Shown here: positions 17,011 to 36,283 of the stretch, piece after piece
Numbering within the stretch: the stretch's first letter is position 1
How the letters are laid out: the number at the start of each line of letters is the position of its first letter
Sequence record: KC814930
DNA: 39,758 nucleotides
Reading direction: 5' to 3' (one strand)
Source: Shigella phage SfIV
Translations under genes and position numbers: made by a program
Notes under the pieces: generated by a model
The model's database searches: none
What the model was told of the DNA's origin: nothing
What the model saw: only the letters and a program-made list of their open reading frames with translations

Positions 17011-17661
17011 ATGCATCGTATAGACACGAAAACCGCGCAGAAGGATAAGTTCGGCGCGGGTAAGAACGGTTTTACCCGTGGTAACCCCCAGACTGGCACG
17101 CCTGCCACCGATCTGGATGATGACTACTTTGACATGTTGCAGGAGGAGCTTTGCAGCGTGGTGGAGGCATCCGGTGCCAGCCTGGAGAAGGGGCGGCACG
17201 ATCAGTTGCTTACCGCACTTCGCGCGCTGCTGTTAAGCCGCAAGAATCCGTTTGGCGATATCAAATCGGATGGCACGGTGAAAACGGCTCTCGAAAACCT
17301 TGGTTTGGGAGAAGCAGCTAAAAGGAATGTAGGTACAGGGGCGAATCAGATACCTGATATGAGCCTGTTCGCGTCAAGTAATACCGCAACGGCTGCTGCG
17401 CAAAAATTTCCGTCTGGATTAATTTTACAGTGCGGTCAGTTGAATGGCTCCCCTAATGTATCTTCAACATACGGGATGAGGTTCCCGATGACATTCTCAA
17501 GAGTCCTTGCTGTCACAGTTACATTGAACGTTACTGGCGCGGCTGGGCAGCCGACTGTATCGGCGACAAATGTCCATAACACTGGATTTAATATTACTGT
17601 GTCGCCCGGTTCAGGATATGGTGCATCTTCTGATGCGTATTACATTGCAATGGGATATTAA
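17011..17661 (+). CDS. tail fibre protein (short)
   Basis: 216 aa, immediately followed by a tail-fibre assembly gene; unusually short for a tail fibre. Confidence 0.65.
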
Positions 17662-17665
17662 CGAA

Positions 17666-18085
17666 ATGTCATATTTTTATTCTGCATCGACAAACGGATT
17701 TTATTCGACTGAATTTCACGGCACCAATATTCCTGATGATGCAGTGGAAATCTCGGAATCAGAGTGGAAAACACTGATTAACTCACAGAGTGTAACAAAA
17801 ATGATTACCTGTGGTGAGAACGGTCATCCTGTCATTGTTGACCGTCCTTCTCCAACACCAGAACAATTAGCCTTAATAAATGATGAAAAGAAATCTGCAC
17901 TGATAGCAGAGGCAACGAATGTAATAGCGCCGCTTCAGGATGCGGTTGATTTAGGTATGGCAACAGATGATGAAACGAAACTGTTACTGGCATGGAAAAA
18001 ATATCGCGTGCTATTGATGCGTGTTAATACTTCAACAGCACTCGATATTGAATGGCCTACGCCTCCGGCAGTTCAGGCCAGATGA
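17666..18085 (+). CDS. tail fibre assembly protein (Tfa)
   Basis: ATG at 17666; C-terminus [28 protein letters not shown] is the Tfa signature; N-terminal part ...[14 protein letters not shown] is also typical. Confidence 0.8.
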
Positions 18086-18569
18086 CATCCGGCGCGGTGC
18101 TGGTATCTGTTGCCGTCACCGCGTCAATGTAATCCAGCACAGCGTTAAGGCGGGTTGTTTCTGCCTGCGTCAGTTTACGTCCGGCCTGCAATTTCAGCTG
18201 AATCAGACTGATGGAAGCCATAGCAGCATCAACCAGAGACTGGCGCTGTACTTCTGCTGCACCTACTGCGGCGCTATGCTGTGCCTCAGTATCCGTCACC
18301 CATTTCTCACCATCCCATTTATCATATGGCGTTAACGGGGCGATAGTGGTTGTATTTTCAGGGTAATCACCCAGAGCTGTGATTTCTTTCGATTCTCCTG
18401 TTTCGGTGCTATAAACGTTTTCACCGCGATGGTCTGGCACATATTCCCATGAGTTAAAATCTGCAGAACGGCAAATTGCATAACCAGCTTTATATGAGCC
18501 AGGAGCATCTAAACAGGAATATGCAGGGATACCGACACCCACAGCAAGATATTCAGTTGATGCAGAAAT
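18057..18569 (-). pseudogene. second tail fibre assembly gene, 5'-truncated by IS insertion
   Basis: Minus-strand reading frame ends ...[17 protein letters not shown] (Tfa signature), convergent with the plus-strand tfa; its 5' end runs into the IS3-family element at 18570 and the first ~45 codons of the track ORF are IS-derived. Confidence 0.7.
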
Positions 18570-18588
18570 ATGAATCGCCACAGATAAT

Positions 18589-19401
18589 CTAGACACTTCC
18601 GAGCCGCTGATAATATTGGTTTTCGTATTCAGTTGGTGGCATATGATCACTCGAACCATGCCGACGCTTACTGTTATAAAACATTTCGATGTAATCAAAA
18701 ATATCACCGCGAGCTTCTTCTCGCGTTCCGTAGATCTTTTTCTTTATCCGTTCACGTTTCAGTAGCTGGAAAAAACTTTCTGCGACTGCGTTGTCATGAC
18801 AGTTACCGCGACGGCTCATACTGCCCTCCAGCCCGTGTGATTTCAGGAACGACTGCCACTCATAGCTTGTGTACTGACTGCCTTGATCAGAATGAACCAG
18901 CACCTGCTTTTGAGGATTACGTCGCCACACGGCCATCAGAAGTGCATTCAGGACAATATCCTTTGTCATCCGGGGCTGCATTGACCAGCCAATAACTTTG
19001 CGCGAGAACAGGTCAACAACCACAGCCAGATACAGCCAGCCTTCGTGAGTCCGGATGTAGGTGATGTCCGTTACCCAACGCTCATCCGGTGCTTCCGAGT
19101 TGAACTGCCGCTGGAGCCTGTTGGGCGTCACGATGCTGGTTTCACCCTTACGTGCCCGTGGGCTACGGTACCCGACCTGAGCCCTTATCCCGGCACGCTT
19201 CATCAGTCGCCAGACACGGTTAACTCCGCACTGTTGTCCGGTATCCCGCAGGTCGAGGTGGATCTTGCGATAACCATAAACGCAACCCGACTCCAGCCAG
19301 AACTGCTTTATCAGCCCCGTCAGCCTCAGGTCAGCATGATGCCGCCGTGAATCCGGCTGCTGAAGCCAGGCGTAAAAACCACTCGGATGCACATCCAGCA
19401 C
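18589..19401 (-). CDS. IS3-family transposase OrfB (DDE catalytic domain)
   Basis: 270 aa; its frame is open upstream into the orfA 3' end, as expected for an OrfAB frameshift fusion. Confidence 0.85.
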   Translation of the reverse strand: MLDVHPSGFYAWLQQPDSRRHHADLRLTGLIKQFWLESGCVYGYRKIHLDLRDTGQQCGVNRVWRLMKRAGIRAQVGYRSPRARKGETSIVTPNRLQRQFNSEAPDERWVTDITYIRTHEGWLYLAVVVDLFSRKVIGWSMQPRMTKDIVLNALLMAVWRRNPQKQVLVHSDQGSQYTSYEWQSFLKSHGLEGSMSRRGNCHDNAVAESFFQLLKRERIKKKIYGTREEARGDIFDYIEMFYNSKRRHGSSDHMPPTEYENQYYQRLGSV

Positions 19402-19438
19402 CCGACAAAGCAGTCGGACAGGCCAGCAATGGGTGTTG

Positions 19439-19741
19439 TCACGGATAAAGGCGTACCTCAGTCGGACAGCTTTGCGAAGTACGCCGCTGTAGATTCAATA
19501 TGTCCCGTTCGTCGGTAACCCGCTTCAGCTCTTTCTGGAGGCGTCGGATCTCAGCCTGAGCGTCTGACTGGACTTTATTGGTTGAGGAATCCGGGCCATA
19601 TGCCTTTATCCAGGCATAAAGACTGTGGGTGGTGATACCGAGACGTGTTGCCACGCTGGAAACAGAATGGCCGCGATCAACAACCTGTTTTACCGCTTCA
19701 ATTTTAAACTCTTCGGGATAACGCTTACCGCTCATGGGCAC
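19439..19741 (-). CDS. IS3-family transposase OrfA (HTH)
   Basis: 100-aa ORF, N-terminal HTH-like segment, upstream of orfB within the IS. Confidence 0.8.
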   Translation of the reverse strand: MPMSGKRYPEEFKIEAVKQVVDRGHSVSSVATRLGITTHSLYAWIKAYGPDSSTNKVQSDAQAEIRRLQKELKRVTDERDILNLQRRTSQSCPTEVRLYP

Positions 19742-19904
19742 CTCTCTTTAAGTCATCTTAAATGACTCTGAGGTGTCTGTTAAACCTGTGGCGATTCATT
19801 ATTAACTCTAATTTTAACAATAATTCCAGCCAGTACCCCGTCAGCCAGGTTGTAGTATTGGGCGGTAATTATTCTTACCCGGAAGGGGTTAAGATGACAC
19901 TAGA

Positions 19905-20373
19905 GATGCGCGGTAATACCTGCCTTGGGGTTGGCTATACGGCAAGCGCATCGAGGCCAGATGTTAGTATAAGTGGATATTCCGCCAATGAGCAGGCTAT
20001 TTTTATCGATTATGATAACTTATGGATCCCATCACAATCACCGGTTGTGGATGCTACTGTTAAATGGAAAAGCTCTCCTGACTTCGCTTTTGGTGTGAGC
20101 GTTGTTGGTGCGACTGGAGCAATGGGAAACAGGAGAAATATACTCAGTGTTACAAGGGGAGCGACTGGGGTTTATACAGTAAATGCAAATCATGATATAG
20201 CAAACGTGGCTGTAGAAATAACTACTGTAGGGGTACCAGGATACGGAATAATAGGTGGTTATCCTACCGCAAACTCATTCGTTGTAAGGATGTACAATAC
20301 TGCAGGCGCTCCCACTGACATAGATTTCATAGCATTAGGAAAAGACTATAGAGCAAGATTTAACGCTACATAA
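19905..20373 (+). CDS. hypothetical protein
   Basis: ORF 19762..20373 begins inside the IS; the first ATG outside the IS is at 19905 with a purine-rich stretch upstream. Followed by a strong hairpin. Confidence 0.45.
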
Positions 20374-20407: not shown

Positions 20408-21721
20408 TTACTTATAAATTCCTGATGCTACCTTATCCAATATAATTGATAGTACTATAAATATCATTAGGTCAAATGAAAAGTTCATTGCAAAAAGATG
20501 CTTGTCTAAATCTCTATATCCTTCGCCAATGAAGCTAATATAAAACTGAGAGATGCTAAAAGCAGATAATGTAAAGATTGCAACAGAATATTTTTTTCGG
20601 ATAAAAATCAGTGATGCTATCATGGCTATAAATGCAACAGGAATCCTCACAGTTGATAGAGCAGAGTCTTTTATTTTTTGAACTTCATTCAAAAAAACAC
20701 TCTTACTTATTATTAGCTTATTTTCCTTGAAGACATGGAAGTAATCTTCAGTTAATTGGGTTCGAACTCCAGAATCAAAAGGAAGAAGGAGGAACATGGA
20801 AGGTTGCTTTAGCATCAAAAGCAAAGAATCCTTCAATCCCCTTTCTTTATTTTTTGCGAAGCAGGCTCCAGCATCTTTTGTGGTAACAGCTCCCTTATCC
20901 AAATCAAATTTATTTCCCCATGCATCAACACCAATGCATTCGTCCACGGCCCACGATGGATTTTCTTTTCCATTGCTTTTATTGTATAGCAAAGTCCCGA
21001 AATAAAGGGAGTGATAGCTGTTATATTTAGTTGCGCTTGGCGAGAAAAATGAAAATGACAATGCAATTATCGTCGCAATTACCATAGCTAAGTGAAATTT
21101 TTTATCTCTTATGTCAATAAATATTATTGAAATTAAAGAAATTAAAATGGGAATATAGAAGAACTGAGATTTTGATGTGGCGATTAGCGCTGCGCATGCA
21201 ACTAGTAATACTTTATCAAACCTTGATATTTCTTTTTTAAGAATTATATAAGTAATTACCGGAAGTAAAGTGATTACTATTTGCTCCTGATAAAATGCTG
21301 TGAATTGTGAAAGTATGGAAGGAGTAAATAGCAATAATGCTGATACCGGAAATAAAAGATAAGAATATTTTTTATTGTTTATTTCTACAAATAGTTTATA
21401 TAACGCACAAATATACACGATTTTGGAAAGAGATGACCATAACCTAAGATCAAATGTGTGTGTGAATATCGATATAACATAAGCGTATAAATAAAGAATA
21501 TAACTAAATGAGCTTTTATACTCATAGTTCACAATTGAACTGAAATTTTCCTTCAGGGTATAAAGTAATGTGCCATCATGTGAGAACTGTCTGATCCCAT
21601 TCATGAAAGGTGTTATGGCCCTATCGAAGTCGCCATTATTCATCATCCATATGTCAATTGACTCCTTGCACAGTAATGCACAAAAAATTGCAAGGAATAC
21701 ATACCTTATTCTTTCAGCCAT
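20408..21721 (-). CDS. serotype-specific O-antigen glucosyltransferase (GtrC-type, polytopic membrane protein)
   Basis: 437 aa, strongly hydrophobic with many predicted TM segments, very AT-rich, immediately downstream of gtrB and gtrA. Confidence 0.7.
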   Translation of the reverse strand: MAERIRYVFLAIFCALLCKESIDIWMMNNGDFDRAITPFMNGIRQFSHDGTLLYTLKENFSSIVNYEYKSSFSYILYLYAYVISIFTHTFDLRLWSSLSKIVYICALYKLFVEINNKKYSYLLFPVSALLLFTPSILSQFTAFYQEQIVITLLPVITYIILKKEISRFDKVLLVACAALIATSKSQFFYIPILISLISIIFIDIRDKKFHLAMVIATIIALSFSFFSPSATKYNSYHSLYFGTLLYNKSNGKENPSWAVDECIGVDAWGNKFDLDKGAVTTKDAGACFAKNKERGLKDSLLLMLKQPSMFLLLPFDSGVRTQLTEDYFHVFKENKLIISKSVFLNEVQKIKDSALSTVRIPVAFIAMIASLIFIRKKYSVAIFTLSAFSISQFYISFIGEGYRDLDKHLFAMNFSFDLMIFIVLSIILDKVASGIYK

Positions 21722-21722
21722 T

Positions 21723-22637
21723 TTATTTCTCTTTTAACAAGTAGCGAGGTCTCTGTTTAACTTCGGTATAAATCCGGCCAATGTACTCGCCCAAAACTCC
21801 GATACCAATGAGCTGCACACCACCGAGAAAAAGTATTGATACCAGCAATGATGGATAACCGCGCACAGGATTCCCGAATGCAAGCGTATCAATGATCATC
21901 CAGGCACCGTACAGGAAAGCCAGGCCTGCAACGAACAGGCCAATGTACGTCCACATGCGTAACGGAAATGTTGAGAAGCTGGTAATCCCTTCAAGCGCCA
22001 GGTTCCAGAGCTTCCAGCCATTAAACTTAGTGCTGCCAGCAACACGCTCAGCGCGAGCATATTCAACAACATCTGTACTCCCACCAACCCAGCTCAATAC
22101 TCCTTTCATGAACAGGTTGCGTTCTGGTAATAATTTAATGTTTTCCACAACTCCGCGAGACATTAGTCGGAAATCGCCGACGTTCTCCTCAATCTTTGGA
22201 TTGCTTATTTTATTGTGAAGTTTATAGAACCACTCAGCAGTCATGCGCTTCAGTCTTCCGTCTGTAGAACGGTCTGAGCGCTTAGCCAGTACCATATCAG
22301 CACCTGCCTGCCACTTTTCAATAAGATGAGGGATAACCTCAATCGGGTCCTGCAGATCGACATCAATAGGAATTACAGCATCGCCGCTTGCATGGTCTAA
22401 CCCTGCAAATAAGGCTGGTTCTTTACCAAAGTTGCGTGTAAATGACAGCGGAACAACTAGCGGGTCTGAAACAGCCAGCGCGTTAATAATTGACTCTGTG
22501 GCATCTTTACTTCCGTCATTTATGAATACAATTTCTACTTCATATGGCTTCAACTCTTGGAATTCACGTACCGTTTTATAGAAAACAGGTATCGCTTCTT
22601 CTTCATTGAAGACAGGAACGACAAGAGATATTTTCAT
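21723..22637 (-). CDS. gtrB: bactoprenol glucosyltransferase
   Basis: 304 aa; N-terminal GT2 features ([26 protein letters not shown]) and C-terminal TM helices. Confidence 0.85.
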
Positions 22638-22996
22638 TTCGCATCCCTAAAGACAATGAACTTTGAATAGACGAAACCGCACACCAGACTGATGGCGGAG
22701 AAGGTGATAAGAGTGACTATTGGAGGAAGTGAGCATTTATCAGCTGCCCAACCAACAATCACACTCAATATTCCCATAAATCCCACGTATAACATGTAGC
22801 GCATCGCTGTAGTCGATGCTTTGAATGTGAATCTTGCATTCGCGAAGAAGCTAAAGCTCACAGCCACTACGAAACCTGTGAAGTTTGCCAGAGCCTGACT
22901 GGTATGTGCGGCATAGATACATACACCAAAAACCACCCAGTGTATAAGTGTGTTCAGCACACCTATAGATGTGTACTTTACAAATAACTTTAACAT
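22634..22996 (-). CDS. gtrA: bactoprenol-linked glucose translocase (flippase)
   Basis: 120 aa, four predicted TM helices, overlaps the gtrB start. Confidence 0.8.
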
Positions 22997-23197: not shown

Positions 23198-23243
23198 ATT
23201 CGTAATGCGAAGGTCGTAGGTTCGACTCCTATTATCGGCACCA
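23198..23243 (+). other. attP core: 3' 46 nt of tRNA-Thr (thrW-type)
   Basis: attcgtaatgcgaaggtcgtaggttcgactcctattatcggcacca matches the anticodon-stem-to-CCA portion of enterobacterial thrW as I recall it; the 5' half of the tRNA is absent; integrase gene ends 15 nt away. Confidence 0.8.
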
Positions 23244-23257
23244 TTAAAATCAATAAG

Positions 23258-24421
23258 TTACACATCATTAGTACCTTCCTTATTTTTTGACTGGGACAAA
23301 TTTGGGACCGATGGGTTCAGGATCGAGTCTATTTGCCGTGCGTGTTCGGTAAGGTGATTAGGTGCAAGGTGAGCATATCGACGAACCATTTCGATAGACT
23401 CCCAGCCTCCCATTTCCTGTAAAACTGACAACGGGACTCCGGCTTGAACCAGCCAACTTGCCCAGGTGTGTCTCAAGTCGTGAAATCTGAAATCATCAAT
23501 ACCAGCCCGTCTCAGCGCCGCTTTCCAGGCTGTGTTTGCGTCATACCGCATCTTCCTTACTGTTGGCGCTTTCGTTCCGTCTGGTTTGGTACAGCTTTCC
23601 TTGTACACAAATACCCAACGGTGATGATTCCCGATTTGTTTTTTCAATACGCGACATGCAGTATCATTCAGCGCAACGCCAATTGCGCGGTTTGATTTAC
23701 TCTCTTCCGGGTTTATCCATGCCACCCGGCGCTGCATATCTATTTGTTGCCATTCAAGGTTGATGATGTTCGAGCGTCTTAAGCCTGTTGCCAGTGCAAA
23801 TTCAACAACAGACTTTAATGGCTCCGGACATTCATCAATCAGCCTTTGTGCTTCATGGGGCTCCAGCCAGCGGATCCGTTTATTCTTTGGTTGAGGCACT
23901 TTAATAATTGGTGCCTTATCCAGCATTTTCCATTCACGCTCTGCGGCTCTTAGTAGGGCCTTTATAAATGAAAGATGCGTAGCCTTCGTTGCAACGGACG
24001 CTGGTTTTGGCGTGTATTCTGGAACAGGTTTCCCTTTTTTTCTGCATGCTTCTGCCCTGAGTTTCCAGTTTTCCTCATGACGCCGGTTCGTCATTTTCTG
24101 CATTGCTGAATAAATTTTTGATTCAGTAATGTCTCTTAGTTGCATTCCTGCGAAATGTTGAAGCCAGAATCCGATCCGGCTTTTGTCATCGTCCAGTGAT
24201 TTTTTATGTGCTTTCTCTTCAAGCCACCTGACACACGCTTCCTCGAACGTTATATCAGGTATTTCACCAAGTTTGCTGACCCGCCATGCTTCAGCCTTTA
24301 GCTTGTCATGGAGTTCTGTCGCCTGCCTTTTGTCCTTTGTTCCAAGAGACTGTTTAAATCTTTTACCGTTCGGCAATGTGAAACTGGCGTACCATATTTC
24401 ACCTCTGCGGAAGAGTGACAT
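23258..24421 (-). CDS. int: tyrosine integrase (P22-type)
   Basis: 387 aa; N-terminus [34 protein letters not shown] and C-terminal catalytic region ([10 protein letters not shown]...VRRYAHL) typical of phage tyrosine integrases; adjacent to attP. Confidence 0.9.
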
Positions 24422-28453: not shown

Positions 28454-28483
28454 TTGTTTCTCTTGGGTACATTATGTATCTCG
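28454..28483. promoter_or_regulatory. putative OL-type operator repeats
   Basis: Two copies of tgggtacatt (28454..28463, 28474..28483) sharing the GGTACA core with the palindromes between cI and cro. Confidence 0.4.
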
Positions 28484-28500
28484 TGGGTACATTGTCAAGT

Positions 28501-28525
28501 ATAAAAAAACCTGCCGAAGCAGGTT
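28501..28525 (-). terminator. rho-independent terminator downstream of cI
   Basis: aacctgc-ttcg-gcaggtt followed on the minus strand by TTTTTAT, 13 nt after the cI stop. Confidence 0.6.
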
Positions 28526-28537
28526 CATAAACATTGA

Positions 28538-29212
28538 TTAGGCTTTGATTTTGTATCTTCTTGGTTTTCCTGAGAAAATCACAGTTCCAATTATAGAGCA
28601 ATTACCGTTGATCTTAATGTAAGGCTCAGGCCAGTTTGGGTTTAACGCTTTGAGATAACGCTGTGTCCCATCTTCTATCAACCTTTTGAAGGTGGTTTCA
28701 CCTGTATCGTGCATCAATGCAATAACGTCGTCACCGTGGCAGGCTGGTACTTCAGGATCGACAAAAATCATGTCTCCCGGGCGGTACTCATCAATCATTG
28801 AATCACCTATCACCCGCAAGATATAAGTCATTTCCCCACAGGGTACAGGGCAGGGATACGTTTCTGCTGTGCTCAAATCAACCTCAGAATATCCAACTTC
28901 TTTCCATGCTCCGGCCTGTACCCATGATATGACAGGGACTAATGTGATTTGTTTATTAGTGATTGAAACATCAGGTTTTTTTGTGATGTTCGTTGTCTGG
29001 TGTTCTTGATCGAGCCATCCAACAGGCAGGTCGAAACATTTTTCGATGTGTCGTGCCATGCTGTCACCGATATTTTTAGTAGCACCATCTCCCATAAACC
29101 TGCTGGTCTGGGTTGGCTCGCGATCAATCATAGTGGCAAAGGAAGAATTCCCGCCAACACCATCTCTCAGTTTTCTGGCGTTAGACCGCCGGATGTCATG
29201 GATTGTTTTCAT
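28538..29212 (-). CDS. cI: CI-type repressor (HTH + S24 LexA-like peptidase domain)
   Basis: 224 aa; N-terminal HTH region and C-terminal S24 signature (VIGDSMIDEYRPGDMIFVD ... TFKRL); divergent from a cro-like gene across palindromic operators. Confidence 0.85.
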   Translation of the reverse strand: MKTIHDIRRSNARKLRDGVGGNSSFATMIDREPTQTSRFMGDGATKNIGDSMARHIEKCFDLPVGWLDQEHQTTNITKKPDVSITNKQITLVPVISWVQAGAWKEVGYSEVDLSTAETYPCPVPCGEMTYILRVIGDSMIDEYRPGDMIFVDPEVPACHGDDVIALMHDTGETTFKRLIEDGTQRYLKALNPNWPEPYIKINGNCSIIGTVIFSGKPRRYKIKA

Positions 29213-29227
29213 AACGAAATTAAAACC

Positions 29228-29300
29228 CTTGTACCGTTAAGGTACAAGTATCTTGAAGGTTCATTTTAATCATGTAATATGTACACCGGAGGTACATATT
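29228..29300. promoter_or_regulatory. OR operator region with two palindromic operators
   Basis: cttgtacc-gttaa-ggtacaag (29228..29248) and aatatgtac-accggag-gtacatatt (29276..29300) in the 90-bp cI/cro intergenic region. Confidence 0.7.
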
Positions 29301-29302
29301 GT

Positions 29303-29503
29303 ATGAAAGCGTATTGGGACTCTTTAACCAAAGAACAGCAGGGCGAGTTGGCCGGAAAAGTTGGCTCAACACCTGGCTACTTACGGCTGGTTTTCAATGG
29401 CTATAAAAAAGCCAGTTTTGTGCTGGCTAAAAAACTTGAGCAATGCACGTCAGGTGCAATTACGAAATCTGACTTAAGACCGGATATCTATCCGAAAGAT
29501 TAG
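29303..29503 (+). CDS. cro: Cro-like HTH regulator
   Basis: ATG at 29303 immediately after the second operator; 66 aa; divergent from cI. Confidence 0.7.
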   Translation: MKAYWDSLTKEQQGELAGKVGSTPGYLRLVFNGYKKASFVLAKKLEQCTSGAITKSDLRPDIYPKD

Positions 29504-29534
29504 CAGAACACTTTCAATTTTTAACCACAGAACG

Positions 29535-34985: not shown

Positions 34986-35240
34986 TTAATGAGTCTATAA
35001 ATTCTTTCGTTTTTTTATTCGCTTCAGCTCTGTGTAATAAGATGCTTTTAAATCTCTGTATTTCGCTGTTTATTGAGCTGATAAAGAAAAAAGAATACAT
35101 TGCAGCAGCAATGCCTCCTCCACAAGCAGATATAAAATATAGATAAACTATCGACTCTCTGGAAATAGCGAACATACCAATTGCTGGTGATGCTGCCAAC
35201 TTACTGATTTAGTGTATGATGGTGTTTTTGAGGTGCTCCA

Positions 35241-35516
35241 GTGGCTTCTGTTTCTATCAGCTGTCCCTCCTGTTCAGCTACTGACGGGGTGGTGCGTAAC
35301 GGCAAAAGCACCGCCGGACATCAGCGCTATCTCTGCTCTCACTGCCGTAAAACATGGCAACTGCAGTTCACTTACACCGCTTCTCAACCCGGTACGCACC
35401 AGAAAATCATTGATATGGCCATGAATGGCGTTGGATGCCGGGCAACAGCCCGCATTATGGGCGTTGGCCTCAACACGATTTTACGTCACTTAAAAAACTC
35501 AGGCCGCAGTCGGTAA
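35241..35516 (+). CDS. insA: IS1 InsA
   Basis: 91 aa, [43 protein letters not shown]... Confidence 0.9.
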
Positions 35517-35938
35517 CCTCGCGCATACAGCCGGGCAGTGACGTCATCGTCTGCGCGGAAATGGACGAACAGTGGGGCTATGTCGGGGCTAAATCGCGCC
35601 AGCGCTGGCTGTTTTACGCGTATGACAGTCTCCGGAAGACGGTTGTTGCGCACGTATTCGGTGAACGCACTATGGCGACGCTGGGGCGTCTTATGAGCCT
35701 GCTGTCACCCTTTGACGTGGTGATATGGATGACGGATGGCTGGCCGCTGTATGAATCCCGCCTGAAGGGAAAGCTGCACGTAATCAGCAAGCGATATACG
35801 CAGCGAATTGAGCGGCATAACCTAAATCTGAGGCAGCACCTGGCACGGCTGGGACGGAAGTCGCTGTCGTTCTCAAAATCGGTGGAGCTGCATGACAAAG
35901 TCATCGGGCATTATCTGAACATAAAACACTATCAATAA
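35435..35938 (+). CDS. insB: IS1 InsB frame (expressed as InsAB' by frameshift)
   Basis: 167-aa ORF overlapping the insA 3' end in the -1 frame. Confidence 0.9.
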
Positions 35939-36283
35939 GTTGGAGTCATTACCCCAATTGCTCCTGAAAAAGCAGCAATAAGATAAAAAAAGATAAGAAA
36001 TCCAAGATGTCTTTTTTTTGCATCAATTATCGGTCGTAATCTTCTTAGTTCATTATCTGATAGTGATGTGTTTTCGTCGGCTTCAGAAACTTTAAAAAAG
36101 GCTGCGATACAATAACTGAAAGGGAATGCTAATAAGGTTATTAATGACCATGGAGTAGATATGCCACTTAAGTCAATTTTTCTAGATGCAAAGTAAAATA
36201 TTGCAAACCCAAAAGCGAAGGCGGATAAGAATCTTATAATAAATTTAAAGAAGCTCATTTCCGCCTCCTGTTGGTTCTAGTTT

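Follow-up and report, generated by a model that had tools for sequence, protein, structure and literature searches.

An IS30 footprint at the lost frameshift site of an IS3-family element in Shigella phage SfIV

The element, its relatives and its reading frames

The sequence record of Shigella phage SfIV (KC814930; 39,758 nucleotides (nt), analysed at full length and called the window here) contains an insertion sequence (IS) of the IS3 family, located between a relic of a tail-fibre assembly gene and a fragment of a tailspike gene. The element spans 1228 bp (18571-19798) on the minus strand of the window, which is its sense strand, and has TG...CA ends. An initial annotation had drawn its limits at 18570-19799, one flanking base too many on each side, and had described 14-bp terminal inverted repeats at 18570-18583/19786-19799; the repeat is real, but its outermost A/T pair belongs to the flanking DNA, so that the repeat proper measures 13 bp with a perfect match, and ~34 nt of the ends match at 76% complementarity. 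The features of the element are as follows.

18571..19798, minus strand: defective IS3-family insertion sequence, 1228 bp (intact relatives 1229 bp), recognised by 99.1% identity, TG...CA ends and the HTH_Tnp_1, rve and NF033516 matches
19786..19798, minus strand: left terminal inverted repeat (IRL), TGAATCGCCACAG, with A at position 12 where other copies have G (end comparison)
19439..19735, minus strand: orfA', 98 codons plus stop, whose last 18 residues, NLQRRTSQSCPTEVRLYP, are an out-of-frame read-through past the scar (frame analysis)
19488..19496, plus strand: IS30 footprint, TGTAGATTC (GAATCTACA on the IS sense strand), replacing AAAAAAAGCC (comparison with IS30 tips)
19486..19487, minus strand: GC in the middle of the palindrome GCCGCGGC, the one copy left of the 2-bp duplication that IS30 made of its target (loci L029-L032 duplicate IS positions 313-314)
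19450..19485, minus strand: predicted stem-loop GGCGTAC...GTACGCC, intact, lying 3' of the slippery site in intact copies (fold prediction)
18589..19494, minus strand: orfB frame (DDE/rve), starting just after a TGA made by the scar and in +1 phase relative to orfA' (frame analysis, Pfam/NCBIfam)
18571..18583, minus strand: right terminal inverted repeat (IRR), ...CTGTGGCGATTCA (end comparison)

On the evidence of its proteins, its ends and its close relatives, the element is a member of the IS3 family. The upstream open reading frame (ORF) contains HTH_Tnp_1 (PF01527, E=2e-19, Pfam), an IS3-family orfA feature, and orfB contains the rve/DDE domain (PF00665, E=3e-32) and matches NF033516, "IS3 family transposase" (E=1e-99, NCBIfam), with the WVTD, HSDQGSQY and DNAVAES motifs readable in its translation. 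The ~34-nt imperfect inverted repeats and the downstream hairpin are likewise shared with the family. The element is 100% identical to a copy in Escherichia coli CFSAN061762 and 99.1% identical to intact 1229-bp copies in many E. coli strains, which look active and generate 3-bp duplications; a second IS type, found mostly on plasmids, is ~89.5% identical. The closest relatives, from E. coli and Klebsiella, are intact, measure 1229 bp and encode WP_094283415.1, and two intact relatives (L001 and L002) carry the slippery heptamer and the label "IS3 family transposase, programmed frameshift" from the Prokaryotic Genome Annotation Pipeline (PGAP). OrfB shares only 35% identity with IS629-type OrfB. 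A full-length copy that is 98.9% identical lies in the record of Klebsiella phage RCIP0114 (H33, OR532908.1 32109-33338), so the IS also occurs in other phage genomes. The designation "ISKpn52:IS30" is reported in PMC6872532 (MN310378); among ISfinder names, ISKpn52 is for us a literature lead only and ISEhe3 a guess, and we claim no name or subgroup.

What sets the window copy apart from its family is the loss of two functional features, the frameshift signal and the target duplication. Intact relatives read ATATT-AAAAAAAGCC-GCGGCG, where AAAAAAAGCC comprises the slippery heptamer and GCC, whereas the window reads ATATT-GAATCTACA-GCGGCG. Over a longer span, intact copies of both types read GGGACATATT-AAAAAAA-GCC-GCGGCGTAC and the window GGGACATATT-GAATCTACA-GCGGCGTAC; put differently, the 99.1% and 89.5% identical copies carry ATATTAAAAAAAGCCGCGGCG and the window ATATTGAATCTA-CAGCGGCG, with TTGAATCTACAGCGG at the site. 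In the orfA frame of intact copies (...ATA TTA AAA AAA GCC...), the heptamer is A AAA AAA. The IS3-family combination of a 0/-1 phase and a slippery heptamer (A AAA AAG or A AAA AAA) is thus missing from the window, in which GAATCTACA occupies the place of the heptamer. The initial annotation had also seen no canonical heptamer, and AAAAAAG is indeed absent from both strands of 18571-19798; the region where it had looked (~19400..19470) was misplaced, since alignment to the relatives puts the site at 19487-19496.

The scar alters both reading frames. From its ATG at 19735, orfA' encodes 80 residues identical to intact OrfA, which comprise the HTH and coiled-coil portion, followed by 18 foreign codons and a TGA at 19441-19439. 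In intact copies orfB lies in -1 phase, whereas here it overlaps orfA' in +1 phase. The scar has also put a TGA into the orfB frame, which is therefore open only from 19494; it still reaches upstream into orfA, as the initial annotation had remarked. Apart from this, OrfB differs from intact OrfB by only two substitutions, P->S and K->N. The predicted 10-11-bp stem (GGCGUAC...GUACGCC) is the same in the window and in intact copies, a prediction whose overall z-score is not significant, and folding of the mutant and intact frameshift regions gave the same hairpin with no informative difference.

The window copy is therefore defective, as had been suspected: its slippery heptamer is gone and its orfB is in the wrong phase. 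With the motif absent and the phase wrong, no OrfAB can be made by the programmed -1 frameshifting of the family. Mobility in trans is the most that can be expected of the copy, whose ends and orfB are otherwise undamaged; it is best regarded as non-autonomous and possibly mobilisable in trans. The chromosome of CFSAN061762 holds no further full copy of the IS, as expected of an immobile one.

The IS30 footprint and its probable origin

Matches between the IS and plasmids break at IS position ~313, and this break led to IS30. In pLAO22, the junction reads ...CCAATTGAATCTACA|GCGGCGTAC (in a longer reading, ...GTTGACCAATTGAATCTACA|GCGGCGTAC), with another element joined to IS position 313. This abutting element is IS30, given its NF033563 transposase and its 100% identity to loci annotated "IS30-like element IS30". 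The ends of IS30, read directly, are TGTAGATTCAATTGGTC... (IRL) and ...GACAGATTGAATCTACA (IRR), and GAATCTACA is the terminal 9 nt of the IS30 inverted repeat, identical at 9/9 positions to both tips. More than 10 loci with IS30 have the same junction with GCGGCGTAC as the window. Because the same nine bases are joined to GCGGCG at the place where IS30 sits elsewhere, the scar is read as an IS30 tip at a recurrent site. The IS30 transposase gene and the second inverted repeat are absent from the window, which contains a footprint and not a copy of IS30.

Across many plasmids, viral contigs and genomes, an entire IS30 occupies this very dinucleotide in one orientation or the other, with GC duplicated. 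Complete nests are found in four IMG/VR contigs (L029-L032), each consisting of IS3-like positions 1-314, IS30 (1221 bp) and IS3-like positions 313-1229. They include both IS30 orientations, and one contig contains an IS30 relative that is only 90% identical. In all four, GC (IS positions 313-314) is doubled within GCCGCGGC, whereas the window has a single GC. Half-junctions occur in plasmid fragments of the 99% type, at the IRR end (L024) and at the IRL end (L025), as well as in Kluyvera georgiana, in a metagenome-assembled genome and in the CFSAN061762 chromosome. There (1865294-1866829; L022/L023), a full IS30 has its IRR abutting positions 1-312 of an 89%-type copy; its other flank is unrelated DNA. 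Junctions with 100% identity were found in plasmids of several genera for each orientation, in 468 and 497 records, two counts that overlap because the queries share 52/80 nt.

Judging from these junctions, the frameshift site of the IS3-like element is a recurrent IS30 target, and the palindrome region AAAAAAAGCCGCGGCGTAC beside the heptamer is a candidate hot spot. IS30 is reported to insert at the central 2 bp of near-palindromic hot spots and to produce 2-bp duplications (PMC9333248). The nests share these properties with the hot-spot targeting described by the Olasz/Kiss group (PMC9333248): the central 2 bp of a near-palindrome, both orientations and a 2-bp duplication. The difference, on an informal comparison with the published consensus, lies in the site itself: we have not seen a hot spot described that consists of GCCGCGGC next to the A7 heptamer in an IS3-family element.

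The scar can be reconstructed exactly from such a nest. Starting from the nested sequence with IRR beside the orfB half, as in L031, an in-silico deletion of 1224 bp between GACATATT and GACAGATT gives a 1228-bp product equal to the window over positions 250-400. GACATATT corresponds to IS3-like positions 295-302, just 5' of the heptamer, and GACAGATT to IS30 positions 1205-1212, within the right inverted repeat and 9 nt from its tip. The deletion is close to IS length (1221 + 2 + 1) but shifted, removing 12 nt of the left flank and leaving 9 nt of the inverted repeat.

We propose that IS30 inserted at the central GC of GCCGCGGC, directly after the A7 slippery heptamer, and was later lost by imprecise excision through this deletion from GACATATT to GACAGATT. 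The excision would have taken the heptamer, the GCC, one copy of the GC and 1212 of the 1221 bp of IS30, leaving GAATCTACA. The net change of -1 nt would make orfA read into the third frame and stop after 18 foreign codons, and would place orfB in +1 phase with no slippery sequence. The order of these steps is our inference, as is a template-switch or abortive-transposition route for the loss of IS30. Comparable events are on record: imprecise deletions of IS length at microhomologies of 1-4 bp remove both ISApl1, of the IS30 family, and IS30 itself, with inverted-repeat remnants left behind, and such losses have been ascribed to template switching in abortive copy-out transposition (PMC5821093; bioRxiv 10.1101/2023.06.07.543989, citing Szabo et al. 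1999). As in the loss of ISApl1 from Tn6330 (Snesrud et al. 2018, PMC5821093) and in the excision of IS30 (Szabo et al. 1999, cited in that paper), the deletion is IS-length, shifted by a few to tens of bases and placed at a short microhomology; one inverted-repeat fragment stays and an equal stretch of flank goes. The present case, known from sequence alone, differs in that the lost flank is the frameshift signal of another IS, so that the host IS would be permanently disabled.

An IS3-family element of Ca. Symbiopectobacterium (L026, NZ_JAGFPE010000004.1, ~311-354), 80% related, bears a second, independent scar at this site. Here the slippery heptamer and the orfA 3' end have given way to ~37-44 nt of an IS30-like IRR, and the orfA 3' sequence that was lost is of similar length.

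Two other sources for the scar were rejected. One was a local donor or templating by a quasi-palindrome: the 8-9-mers found elsewhere in the window do not exceed chance, the downstream hairpin arm fits imperfectly, and the IS30 match superseded the idea. Likewise, the likeness of the changed bases to the IRL of the element itself (TGAATC..ACAG) was judged coincidental.

Truncated flanks and the missing target duplication

On either side, the IS is bordered by a gene that ends exactly at its tip, and beyond the right flank lies the O-antigen modification cassette.

18057..18570, minus strand: tfa' pseudogene (tail-fibre assembly), with ~85 nt of its 5' end missing, cut exactly at the IS tip (Pfam Caudo_TAP, PF02413; homologue alignment)
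19799..20373, plus strand: 3' fragment of a podovirus-type tailspike gene, the last ~190 codons, cut exactly at the other IS tip (protein alignments)
20408..22996, minus strand: gtr(type)-gtrB-gtrA cassette for O-antigen modification; next come the attP core (~23198-23261) and the integrase gene (23258-24421)

Intact tfa homologues measure 603 nt and continue ...GAAATA|TATTCCCG..., whereas the homology of tfa' ends at the IRR tip; PGAP describes tfa' as "incomplete, missing N-terminus". From its second codon, the tailspike fragment is 57% identical to residues 493-665 of a 679-amino-acid tailspike with a P22 Head_binding domain (E=6e-65), and it is 70% identical to the C-terminus of the tail fibre of the T7-like Providencia phage EPr2. 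Each of the two flanking genes points away from the IS and has lost its 5' part.

In IS orientation, the triplets next to the ends read TAA and TAT (ATA/TTA on the plus strand). The absence of a 3-bp duplication, which had been noted for the wider limits, therefore persists with the corrected ends. Intact relatives that represent simple insertions have such duplications: ggt in L002 and L010, and ttg in L012. Several other copies of the IS, flanked by different genes, also lack one. Among intact copies without a clean 3-bp duplication, L001 (gac/aac) lies between yicC and a helix-turn-helix (HTH) domain gene, and L008 (gtt/ttc) lies inside the ehaB autotransporter adhesin gene.

Since the triplets agree at two of three positions, the window copy might represent a simple insertion whose duplication drifted by one base. 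We find this improbable: the flanks are different genes, each without its 5' part and both pointing away from the IS, none of the E. coli genomes searched joins them, and the other copies between different genes likewise lack a duplication. A search of 5426 E. coli genomes for an empty site in which both flanks are joined found none, and the right flank without the IS was not found either, as only three genomes carry this flank, all with the same IS junction. A search for phages that combine the tailspike fragment with gtr matched only the tail fibre of the T7-like Providencia phage.

Because both flanking genes are truncated at their 5' ends and are nowhere joined in the E. coli genomes, the IS is read as a rearrangement joint; no duplication is expected at a joint formed by deletion or recombination rather than by simple insertion. 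The truncated alignments show that phage DNA was lost at the IS. The initial annotation had suggested recombination between two IS copies with loss of adjacent phage DNA. The loss is upheld; recombination between IS copies and an IS-mediated adjacent deletion fit the flanks equally well. We read tfa' as a relic of a myovirus tail-fibre switching segment, joined by the IS to the tailspike gene that precedes the gtr-attP-int module. Alignment to IS3-family relatives and comparison of the flanks with related phages, both recommended in the initial annotation, revealed neither an intact slippery site nor a mis-delimited duplication. Its two alternatives, a defective copy and a recombination joint, turn out to be two separate facts and both essentially right; it gave no hint of why the heptamer is missing, which we attribute to the 9-bp footprint of an excised IS30.

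The window is a circular permutation (the phage form, with gtrA-attP-int intact) of a ~39-kb serotype-converting prophage of the SfV/SfI/SfII kind at thrW in CFSAN061762, with an att core at ~23198-23261 marked by a 64-bp alignment overlap. The two are 99.3-99.9% identical, with two replaced or extra segments; the non-aligning segments, 28456-29522 and 35186-35953, amount to one mosaic replacement and one indel. Baseplate and tail-fibre genes show 95-99% identity to those of Shigella phages SfI, SfII and SfV, and the gtrA-gtrB-gtr(type)-attP-int layout and, in the near-identical CFSAN061762 prophage, the thrW site are shared with these phages. In SfI and SfV, however, tfa is directly followed by gtr(type)-gtrB-gtrA-attP-int, whereas the window has the tfa' relic, the IS and the tailspike fragment between tfa and gtr. 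The P22 arrangement has, after the tailspike gene, a gtr cassette in opposite orientation and then attP and int. By its P22-like layout, the gtr module of the window suggests an origin in a podovirus-type prophage.

Some side observations concern the same region. Start codons inside the IS ends are in frame with the flanks: GTG at 18707 opens a predicted ORF into tfa' (18057-18707, minus strand) and ATG at 19762 a predicted ORF into the tailspike fragment (19762-20373, plus strand), each running out of its IS end. At 17570-18570, two tail-fibre assembly genes converge with a 29-nt overlap (18057-18085), as in invertible tail-fibre segments (compare an e14-like locus with pinE, L014). The window has no invertase gene and no alternative fibre tip.

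Competing explanations and wider readings

Taken together, the explanation that an IS30 insertion and its imprecise loss killed the frameshift signal, and that the IS lies at a rearrangement joint of its flanks, is one in which we have high confidence. Several points weigh against it. Just 9 nt of IS30 are left, with a chance of 4e-6 for this 9-mer at one given place, and 9 nt cannot tell which IS30 end they represent, so that the assignment to IRR relies on the repeat, which at 7/8 is the better one, and on L024, a relative of the 99% type. The 2 nt beside IS30 are GT in L025 and AC in L022 instead of GC. Neither the direct progenitor, this prophage with an intact IS30 inside the IS, nor the parental arrangements of the flanks (an intact tailspike gene with this gtr cassette, and the IS in an intact tfa') were found. 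Finally, the CFSAN061762 copy, identical to that of the window, carries a PGAP annotation as a "programmed frameshift" coding sequence.

The best-surviving alternative, which is nevertheless improbable, is gene conversion: the scar would have been copied from a diverged relative of the IS in which an IS30 remnant was present beforehand. Nested IS3-like::IS30 arrangements are widespread on plasmids, and the Symbiopectobacterium scar demonstrates a remnant in another genus. However, the sequence on both sides of the window scar belongs to the 99% type and shows no patch of the 89% or the 80% type, and the exact scar, searched as a 27-mer, was found only in CFSAN061762 among the 5426 E. coli genomes and was absent from GTDB representatives and IMG/VR. 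Gene conversion would in any case alter only the place of the deletion, not its nature.

It is still less likely that the element remains autonomous through a non-canonical +1 event, for example at CCG-UGA-C at the end of orfA', where the orfB codon GAC lies 1 nt downstream. An intact orfB in +1 phase, an orfA' stop that overlaps the orfB frame and the PGAP label could be read in this way, but there is no slippery or known +1 shift-prone motif, the arrangement would be an accidental by-product of the IS30 deletion confined to one lineage, and the CFSAN061762 chromosome lacks a second full copy. The label on that copy is a homology-driven join and should not be taken to show recoding.

Decay of the slippery site by point mutations, or by a local burst with a 1-nt homopolymer deletion and no part for IS30, is very improbable. 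Homopolymer runs are prone to indels, and in a degenerate plasmid copy (pTB212) 1 nt is deleted directly after its A run. In the window, by contrast, a single stretch of 11 bp holds 6 of the 11 differences that separate the element from its 99%-identical intact relatives (P ~3e-7, corrected for all positions), the new 9-mer is an IS30 tip that abuts GCGGCG where IS30 ends lie in many loci, and the in-silico reconstruction from a nest is exact. No intermediates with subsets of the substitutions occur in the 5426 E. coli genomes, GTDB representatives or IMG/VR. Least credible of all is a sequencing or assembly artefact, to which homopolymers are liable on some platforms, because the change is a complex substitution with no homopolymer length error and the identical 1228-bp IS with its flanks recurs in the independent CFSAN061762 assembly, whose prophage is 0.1-0.7% different elsewhere and has two replaced segments, making the scar one seen in two independent sequences.

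With the IS30 explanation preferred, the missing slippery site becomes the footprint of a second IS and involves no new recoding mechanism, while the missing duplication marks a rearrangement joint. For the window copy, the automatic "programmed frameshift" annotation is wrong, and the element should be handled as a non-autonomous one. On the whole, IS decay of an ordinary kind accounts neatly for what is observed, and the hot spot offers a clean natural example in which one IS inactivates another. Precedents exist for nested ISs, for IS30 hot spots and for imprecise excision in the IS30 family; what we believe to be modestly new is a hot spot on the frameshift signal of another IS, with repeated hits in both orientations and frameshift-dead scars. 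Such a hot spot, on a widespread plasmid IS3-family element, would explain many "split" copies in Enterobacteriaceae plasmids, and in the flanks, tail genes of a myovirus would meet an O-antigen modification module of podovirus origin at a mosaic joint.

Two linked, broader readings can be drawn from these findings, although jointly we regard them as tentative and rather doubtful. First, the frameshift signal of this IS3-family lineage may be a true natural hot spot that IS30 has hit independently many times, in both orientations and in several genera and IS variants. If so, IS30 would systematically knock out a competing IS, and its imprecise loss would leave frameshift-dead, immobilised copies, of which the two independent scars would be examples. 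Second, an SfV-type myovirus may have gained the tailspike'-gtr module from a podovirus-type prophage at the same thrW site, with the IS as the joint. This would represent the IS-mediated creation of a new serotype-converting phage, with a gtr(type) that has no homologue in phage records.

The serotype-specific Gtr itself (20408-21721, minus strand; 437 amino acids) has only sub-threshold Pfam matches (DUF2142, GT87), and a tblastn search of 50,697 phage records found no homologue of the gtr(type) protein; it may specify an undescribed O-antigen modification. Two further E. coli genomes, LD93-1 and NCTC9967, have the same IRL variant and the same IS-tailspike' junction, and since both features are common to them, the joint is older than these lineages. 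At ~3340-5000 in both, the prophage is reduced to thrW-int'-ISEc52 (frameshifted), the first ~248 bp of the IS, tailspike' and gtr, which looks like an ISEc52-associated deletion of nearly the whole prophage.

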